From assembly GCF_057098645.1 (NCBI RefSeq), contig NZ_CM169472.1: a stretch of 64,000 nucleotides of DNA; one strand, given 5' to 3'. Numbering within the stretch: the stretch's first letter is position 1; each line of letters begins with the position of its first letter. This document shows, piece by piece, positions 17,958-20,461 of this stretch. Position numbers and translations under genes: made by a program. The notes under the pieces were generated by a model. The model did not search any database. It was not told the DNA's origin and saw only the letters and a list, made by a program, of their open reading frames with translations.

Positions 17958-18749
17958 TTACTTCAGCATAAAGTCATACTGAATACTCATTTTCACATCC
18001 CAGTAATTCAGGCGATCGCCCAGCGCACTGCCATCGCGCTTTTCCCGCCCTTTATCGGCAGCAAGAAAGAAATTCATCCCTTGTAACGGCCCTTCGCTGA
18101 CCCGATAGTTCATACCACCTAAGATACCCGTGCCTTCAATCCGCACATCTCGTTTACTGGATTCATAGCCGCGAGTCACAATCGGTGCAAATGTCAGCGT
18201 AAATTGCGGCGTTAAACGATAGTTGACGCCCAATTGCCAGGACTGCATTCCTTCACGGTTACGATCAAGACTTAATGAAAAGGGATAGCCAATGTCGGTA
18301 TCCACCACGGCACCATTCATTGCATGGCGCAAATAACCACCACTGCCAAATACGCTTCCCCACGGCGCATTCCAGGTCAATTGTCCACTAACCAACGCCG
18401 TTTCATTGGGCTGGCTGGTATTACGACTTAAACCTTCGAGTTGCGCGTAAAAGCCGAGCAACTCCCCTTTCAACGTATAATTCGGGTCAAGCGGTATGCT
18501 TTTCTCGAGAATACTTTGTATCTGATTGGAAACATCTTTCTGTACCGATGCCCCCAGAGAATAGCGACTGGTATCATCATGCCAACTGGCGGCTAAAAAA
18601 GAACGTGCGCGATGTTTATCGTATTTTCCCGTCTGGCTGTTATACACCCCTTCATCACGAATACCGGTTGTTGAATCAGTCCATAAAAATACTCGTGAAC
18701 GCCACATTCCCCACAGATCAATATTTGGCGTTAAAGCCCAATAACCTAA

Positions 18750-19945
18750 GGAAGGTGCGAACAAGTTCCTGATATGAGATCATCATATTCATCCGGAGCG
18801 CATCCCAGAGGGACATCATGAGCCATCAACTCACCTTCGCCGATAGTGAATTCAGCACTAAGCGCCGTCAGACCCGAAAAGAGATTTTCCTCTCCCGCAT
18901 GGAGCAGATTCTGCCATGGCAGAATATGACCGCTGTCATCGAGCCGTTTTATCCCAAGGCGGGCAATGGCCGACGGCCCTATCCGCTGGAGACCATGCTG
19001 CGTATTCACTGCATGCAGCATTGGTACAACCTGAGCGACGGTGCCATGGAAGATGCCCTGTACGAAATCGCCTCCATGCGCCTGTTTGCCCGATTATCTC
19101 TGGATAGCGCCCTGCCGGATCGCACCACCATCATGAATTTCCGCCACCTGCTCGAGCAGCATCAACTGGCCCGTCAATTGTTCAAGACCATCAATCGCTG
19201 GCTGGCCGAAGCAGGCGTCATGATGACCCAAGGCACTTTGGTGGATGCCACCATCATTGAGGCACCCAGCTCTACCAAGAACAAAGAGCAGCAACGCGAT
19301 CCGGAGATGCATCAGACCAAGAAAGGCAATCAGTGGCACTTTGGCATGAAGGCCCACATTGGTGTCGATGCCAAGAGTGGCCTGACCCACAGCCTAGTCA
19401 CCACCGCGGCCAACGAGCATGACCTCAATCAGCTGGGTAATCTGCTTCATGGAGAGGAGCAATTTGTCTCAGCCGATGCCGGCTACCAAGGAGCGCCACA
19501 GCGCGAGGAGCTGGCCGAGGTGGATGTGGACTGGCTGATCGCCGAGCGTCCCGGCAAGGTAAAAACCTTGAAGCAGCATCCGCGCAAGAACAAAACGGCC
19601 ATCAACATCGAATACATGAAAGCCAGCATCCGTGCCAGGGTGGAGCACCCGTTTCGCATCATCAAGCGGCAGTTCGGCTTCGTGAAAGCCAGATACAAGG
19701 GGCTGCTGAAAAACGATAACCAACTGGCGATGTTATTCACCCTGGCCAACCTGTTTCGGGTGGACCAAATGATACGTCAGTGGGAGAGATCTCAGTAAAA
19801 ACCGGAAATAACGCCAGAAATGGTGGAAAAAATAGCCTAAATAGGCTGATTCGATGTGTTTGCGGGAAAAAAATCGGCCCAGATCCGCGAAATTTTAATC
19901 AACGAGTCAGCTTGGGAAGAAATGACCTGCTTATTCGCACCTTCC
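18750..19945 (+). mobile_element. IS5 insertion sequence (~1.2 kb) with 16-bp terminal inverted repeats, flanked by 4-bp CTAA target-site duplications
   Basis: Left end ggaaggtgcgaacaag (18750-18765) and right end cttattcgcaccttcc (19930-19945) are the IS5 inverted repeats; CTAA at 18746-18749 and 19946-19949; internal 326-aa IS5 transposase. Confidence 0.95.
18818..19798 (+). CDS. insH: IS5 transposase (InsH / Ins5A, DDE family)
   Basis: 326-aa [40 protein letters not shown]... recognised as the IS5 transposase. Confidence 0.95.
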
Positions 19946-20461
19946 CTAATGCTCCTTCAGAAACTGTCGGTAATGTACGTTGCGAACTACCAGCCATTAA
20001 CGGAATACGATAAGGTAAGCTACCATAACTATAATCCGTCCCGAAGCGACCTAATTTAAGCAGGCTATTTTCACTGGGTTTTATTTTTACTGCCCCCAGG
20101 GCAAAGCCAAAACTTTTATCACCATCAAGATACCACCGGGTACTCATATCAGCACGAGCACCTAATTTATAAACATAATACGCTCCGCCTTCAACGCCAA
20201 TAATATTGGAATAATAACCACTATTGAAATCGAGCAATCCTCCCTGTACCCATGCGTAAATATCTCTTCCCGCGCCAGCACTGGGCTTATCAGCCCTGCG
20301 CAATTCGTTTTTCAGTCTGATGCGTAGTCCCGCTTCATCGTCAGCCAGTTGCGCCGCGTAAGCAGAGGTAAGGCCAGAGGCAGCCGTCAGGCAAATAACG
20401 GCCATGGCCACTATTTTTCTCATAGTTGCACCTTTGATGTTCTGATTATTTTTATTGAATA

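Follow-up and report, generated by a model that had tools for sequence, protein, structure and literature searches.

ISKpn26 insertion at a CTAA site of uidC in an O145:H28-like Escherichia coli chromosome

ISKpn26 is an "IS5-like" element known for the disruption of mgrB in Klebsiella pneumoniae. By the ISfinder naming rule, insertion sequences sharing at least 95% DNA identity carry the same name. The ISfinder entry for ISKpn26 (reference copy in NC_016845) gives a length of 1196 bp and an ORF at positions 69–1049 (tabulated in PMC8796155). IS5 prefers YTAR as its target (PMC5009759, PMC5493358), it is described to undergo local hopping and IS-IS recombination (PMC5009759), and duplex destabilisation has been put forward as a factor in its insertion (PMC5493358).

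The uidC::ISKpn26 allele is itself already known as an annotated pseudogene in public genomes. The RefSeq entries of the strains MSI001 (NZ_CP076645.1), S1-KEN-03-A (NZ_CP145698.1) and 23CRST013 (NZ_AP045773.1) have the element at the same site and in the same orientation as the locus described here, with the same CTAA duplication. In those parts of the literature on uidC and insertion sequences that were accessible, uidC appeared incidentally and no uidC::IS allele was described; the names gusB and gusC likewise gave nothing.

Here, we describe such an insertion in a stretch of 64,000 nucleotides from the contig NZ_CM169472.1 (assembly GCF_057098645.1), hereafter the window. Very probably, ISKpn26 transposed into the CTAA at uidC codons 159–160 in a strain very close to O145:H28. 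The event is a real, ordinary and conventional IS insertion, with a known element and a known type of target. The locus resembles the ISfinder ISKpn26 in its layout, in DNA identity to annotated copies (99.9–100%) and in the inactivation of a gene by simple insertion. No structural difference was found; what differs is the setting, with an O145:H28-like E. coli chromosome as host and uidC instead of mgrB as target.

Architecture and identity of the element

The features of the insertion and of the adjoining uid genes are collected in Table 1. An initial annotation, made from the letters of the window, had reported the inverted repeats (IRs), the CTAA duplication and an intact transposase of 326 aa; on re-inspection the coordinates of the repeats and of the duplication held to the base, and the transposase ORF was free of internal stops.

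Table 1. Features of the uidC insertion and of the adjoining uid genes (window coordinates)
Feature	Position	Strand	Details
uidC 3′ fragment	17958..18749	-	264 codons including the stop; without promoter or start codon
CTAA target-site duplication, left copy	18746..18749		
Complete ISKpn26-type insertion sequence (IS5 family, IS5 group)	18750..19945	+	1196 bp
Terminal IR, transposase-proximal	18750..18765	+	GGAAGGTGCGAACAAG
Transposase gene, DDE type, intact	18818..19798	+	326 aa; no internal stops (ORF listing)
Terminal IR, transposase-distal	19930..19945	-	CTTATTCGCACCTTCC as + strand; reverse complement GGAAGGTGCGAATAAG
CTAA target-site duplication, right copy	19946..19949		
uidC 5′ fragment	19946..20423	-	159.3 codons; signal peptide and first ~160 native residues
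uidB pseudogene (glucuronide:H+ symporter)	20462..21835	-	TGG to TGA at codon 98; stop at 21542-21544, SNP at 21542
uidA (beta-glucuronidase), intact	21832..23643	-	603 aa; V189M relative to O145:H28 (window 23079)

The two 16-bp IRs (GGAAGGTGCGAACAAG and GGAAGGTGCGAATAAG) are identical at 15 of 16 positions. The window has two occurrences of their motif, where shuffles predict 0.07, and no second copy of the element, which might form a composite transposon or serve as a recombination partner, was found in these 64 kb. The transposase ORF occupies positions 69–1049 of the element. Its product matches the Pfam domains PF01609 (DDE_Tnp_1, 1.6e-35) and PF05598 (DUF772, 3.3e-21) and scores 367 bits against the NCBIfam model NF033581 (IS5 family transposase; cut-off 140). 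A single DDE transposase, IRs of about 16 bp around some 1.2 kb, and a 4-bp YTAR duplication place the element in the IS5 group of the IS5 family. With its ORF and both ends intact and a fresh target duplication, this copy may be mobile.

The element had first been called a complete IS5, which stands at the level of the family; the precise name has to be changed, because it is an ISKpn26 iso-element. Its DNA is 91.0% identical to IS5A of K-12 (NC_000913.3, 1195 bp; 1089 of 1197 aligned columns), below the 95% required for IS5 sensu stricto. The 108 differing columns, including three gaps, lie mostly in the two non-coding ends, and the transposase shares 320 of 326 residues with K-12 InsH1 (six differences). 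The two elements are thus alike in family, architecture, the IR core GGAAGGTGCGAA(C/T)AAG and the 4-bp YTAR duplication, and differ in DNA sequence and by 1 bp in length.

By comparison, the element is 100% identical to the plasmid copies in CP082484.1 (Salmonella) and CP058064.1 (E. coli), and shares 99.9% identity with those in E. coli MSI001 and EA7; RefSeq labels all four as "IS5-like element ISKpn26 family transposase". Its transposase is one residue apart from WP_000019441.1 (R274K, the uidC copy having R274 and the RefSeq protein K). The length of 1196 bp and the position of the 326-aa ORF agree with the ISfinder entry, and the threshold of at least 95% DNA identity is exceeded indirectly, via the annotated copies. 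On the basis of these annotated copies and of the published length and ORF coordinates, we identify the element as ISKpn26. At least 5000 plasmid records matched it, at least 3683 of them at 99% identity or more, and the element is widespread on enterobacterial plasmids.

The empty site and the strain background

Removal of positions 18750–19949 gives a single uidC ORF of 421 aa plus a stop, as the initial annotation had expected, and its division of the gene into parts of 159 and 264 codons also agrees with our count. The restored protein differs from K-12 UidC in one residue (position 400), scores 860 bits against the UidC equivalog NF008479 (cut-off 510) over positions 1–421 of 421, and gives a weak match to OprD (PF03573). 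The gene order manA-ydgA-uidC-uidB-uidA-uidR-hdhA is the same as in K-12, which together with the equivalog score identifies the gene as uidC. The orientation of ISKpn26 is opposite to that of uidC, and the 5′ fragment of the gene continues for 14 codons into the element up to a stop at 19899, giving an ORF of 174 aa (19899–20423).

The alignment with K-12 MG1655 (NC_000913.3, locus L003) is broken exactly at a single CTAA: window positions 17924–18749 correspond to 7553–8378 of the K-12 locus, and 19945–25579 to 8374–14001. The empty site contains one CTAA only, both in K-12 and in E. coli O145:H28 RM9872, and this tetranucleotide is duplicated in the window. These comparisons bear out the earlier reading of a simple transposition absent from the K-12 reference, at a target that fits the YTAR preference. 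In such an event, the transposase would cut the YTAR target with a 4-bp stagger, as is to be expected from DDE transposases and IS5, and repair of the resulting gaps would generate the CTAA duplication.

Outside the IS, the window and RM9872 are collinear and share about 99.97% identity, with 11 SNPs and two indels across approximately 49 kb. The uidC gene is free of the IS in RM9872 and in the other O145:H28 genomes among the best matches listed, and a search of 5,426 complete RefSeq E. coli genomes gave no O145 genome among the records with the uidC::IS arrangement. The best full-length matches to the interrupted gene in the same search were 99.2–99.6% identical and came from other backgrounds.

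The site and the orientation of the insertion are common to MSI001, S1-KEN-03-A, S1-KEN-04-A and 23CRST013, and the left junction is the same in EA7-type genomes, as would be expected if the uidC::IS allele had been inherited, or imported by homologous recombination from other E. coli. However, the region 17977–21541 is identical to the IS-free RM9872 except for the IS itself, which amounts to some 770 bp on the left flank and some 1590 bp on the right. All other carriers differ from the window at 18678–18729 (17–71 bp to the left) and at 19989 (40 bp to the right), and their IS copies differ too, at 19638 or at 3–6 other positions. In MSI001, S1-KEN-03-A and 23CRST013, the divergence of the flanks reaches 1–1.6%, and the nearest SNPs are tens of bp away from the junctions. 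This flank SNP pattern led us to reject an inherited or imported allele, which we consider highly improbable. Since the flanks are those of IS-free O145:H28 and unlike those of the other carriers, the insertion is therefore independent and recent within this lineage.

It is even harder to credit that the assembler collapsed an IS copy from another part of the genome or put it into uidC. IS elements are notorious for causing misassembly, and a shortened homopolymer in hdhA of the same window (see below) could be a sequencing error. However, the junctions are base-exact and the YTAR target is duplicated, with a single CTAA in the relatives, whereas a misplaced repeat would create no target duplication. 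Furthermore, independent assemblies of at least four complete genomes contain the same junctions.

Several other differences were found between the window and its relatives. In RM9872, 7 bp are tandemly duplicated near the 3′ end of uidC (5224–5230 of its locus L004; window 17976), so that its UidC ends in ...SIQYSV (418 aa) instead of ...SIQYDFMLK; the window does not have this duplication and agrees with K-12. The ydgA-uidC spacer (17914–17957) is 45 bp long in the window and in EA7, 60 bp in RM9872, and 226 bp in K-12 and MSI001; the indel of about 181 bp is probably a small repeat element. Positions 1–593 of the window gave no alignment to RM9872. In other E. coli (O157:H7, O26 and pig isolates), they match the terminal part of an integrated element whose tyrosine recombinase adjoins tqsA, and they therefore belong to a prophage or island at the tqsA site that is absent from RM9872. 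In rsxC (36146–36771), imperfect internal tandem repeats with a period of about 96 bp were seen as off-diagonal self-matches, and RM9872 contains them likewise.

Recurrence of ISKpn26 at the uid locus

The initial annotation was silent on other E. coli with the IS at the same uidC site. The arrangements of ISKpn26 in the uid locus were surveyed among 5,426 complete E. coli genomes. The same simple insertion at the CTAA used in the window (site A) was found in four genomes (MSI001, S1-KEN-03-A, S1-KEN-04-A and 23CRST013), which have distinct flanks and/or IS variants. Unlike the window, MSI001, S1-KEN-03-A and 23CRST013 have an intact uidB. A simple insertion at the sole + strand CTAA of uidB (site C, 20602–20605) was found in the fox isolate LR883965. 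In six genomes (EA7 and others), the left junction of site A is joined to the right junction of site C with the loss of 652 bp, and in two genomes another CTAA of uidC (site B, 20051–20054) is joined to site C. Among the aligned loci (L002, L006 and L008), such derived deletions of 652 bp or about 550 bp have their left junction in uidC and their right junction in uidB. Local hopping and IS-IS recombination, as described for IS5, could account for these deletion alleles.

The orientation of ISKpn26 is uniform across all the arrangements at the uid locus. This fits the distribution of CTAA in uidC, with six occurrences on the + strand and none on the other. The GC content at site A (25 bp on either side) is 0.39, the lowest of the six uidC sites, which is weakly in line with duplex destabilisation, six sites being an anecdotal sample.

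At least three other backgrounds have been hit at the same CTAA, which suggests a minor hotspot. A stronger proposal is that the CTAA at codons 159–160 is a true recurrent hotspot of ISKpn26, with at least four independent events in one orientation, and that the loss of the porin or the transporter is perhaps also selected in some niches; we regard this as rather unlikely. The loss of beta-glucuronidase activity is well known in O157:H7. If the proposal were true, uidC::IS together with the uidB nonsense mutation would be a parallel to that loss in the O145:H28 lineage.

Other lesions in the operon and glucuronide uptake

The nonsense codon in uidB, also passed over by the initial annotation, is the sole amino-acid difference from the O145:H28 UidB (W98*). 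Among the 5222 complete E. coli genomes with a match to this stretch, none contained the exact 61-mer around the SNP. From its truncation, the inner-membrane glucuronide transporter UidB would be inactivated independently of the IS.

Another lesion was observed near the operon, in hdhA for 7-alpha-hydroxysteroid dehydrogenase (24853–25619, - strand), where a run of seven A is shortened to six near 25214 and the frameshift leaves ORFs of 141 aa and 109 aa. Of 5,362 genomes, 14 scattered ones have the A6 allele too, which would be explained by recurrent slippage or by a homopolymer sequencing error. About four of the 14 differences from RM9872 (11 SNPs, two indels and the IS) are located within the 4.5-kb uid operon, against an expectation of about 1.3; this excess is suggestive, no more (rough Poisson P of about 0.04–0.05).

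The product of the interrupted uidC is predicted to consist of the signal peptide and about 160 native residues, followed by the 14 residues encoded by the IS. An OprD-family beta-barrel therefore could not form from it, and the outer-membrane glucuronide porin would be lost, so that a loss of UidC function is inferred from the truncation. The operon uidA-uidB-uidC ends with uidC, and ydgA, which comes next, is convergent, so that the insertion should have no polar effect, and no gene is placed for IS-driven activation. IS5 does activate adjacent operons, such as bglGFB, glpFK, flhDC and fucAO (PMC5493358, PMC11894529), but selection of the present insertion for activating a neighbour deserves next to no credence and was rejected from gene orientation, since the site lies inside the coding sequence of the operon's last gene, between the uidC 5′ fragment transcribed toward the IS and, on the other side, the uidC 3′ fragment and the convergent 3′ end of ydgA, with no promoter region or co-oriented downstream gene to activate.

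We therefore return to simple inactivation of uidC by ISKpn26. With the W98* mutation of uidB in addition to uidC::IS, glucuronide uptake is probably disabled at both membranes, while the reading frame of uidA is intact. Poor growth on glucuronides is predicted from the two lesions despite the intact uidA frame. Detection with MUG or X-gluc could be affected as well, solely through lowered substrate uptake. The finding has little significance beyond the description of the strain, in which the uidC pseudogene is strain-specific and might be used to mark a lineage among O145:H28-like E. coli. For the IS5 family, uidC is a further example of IS5-type elements re-using one YTAR site across lineages.
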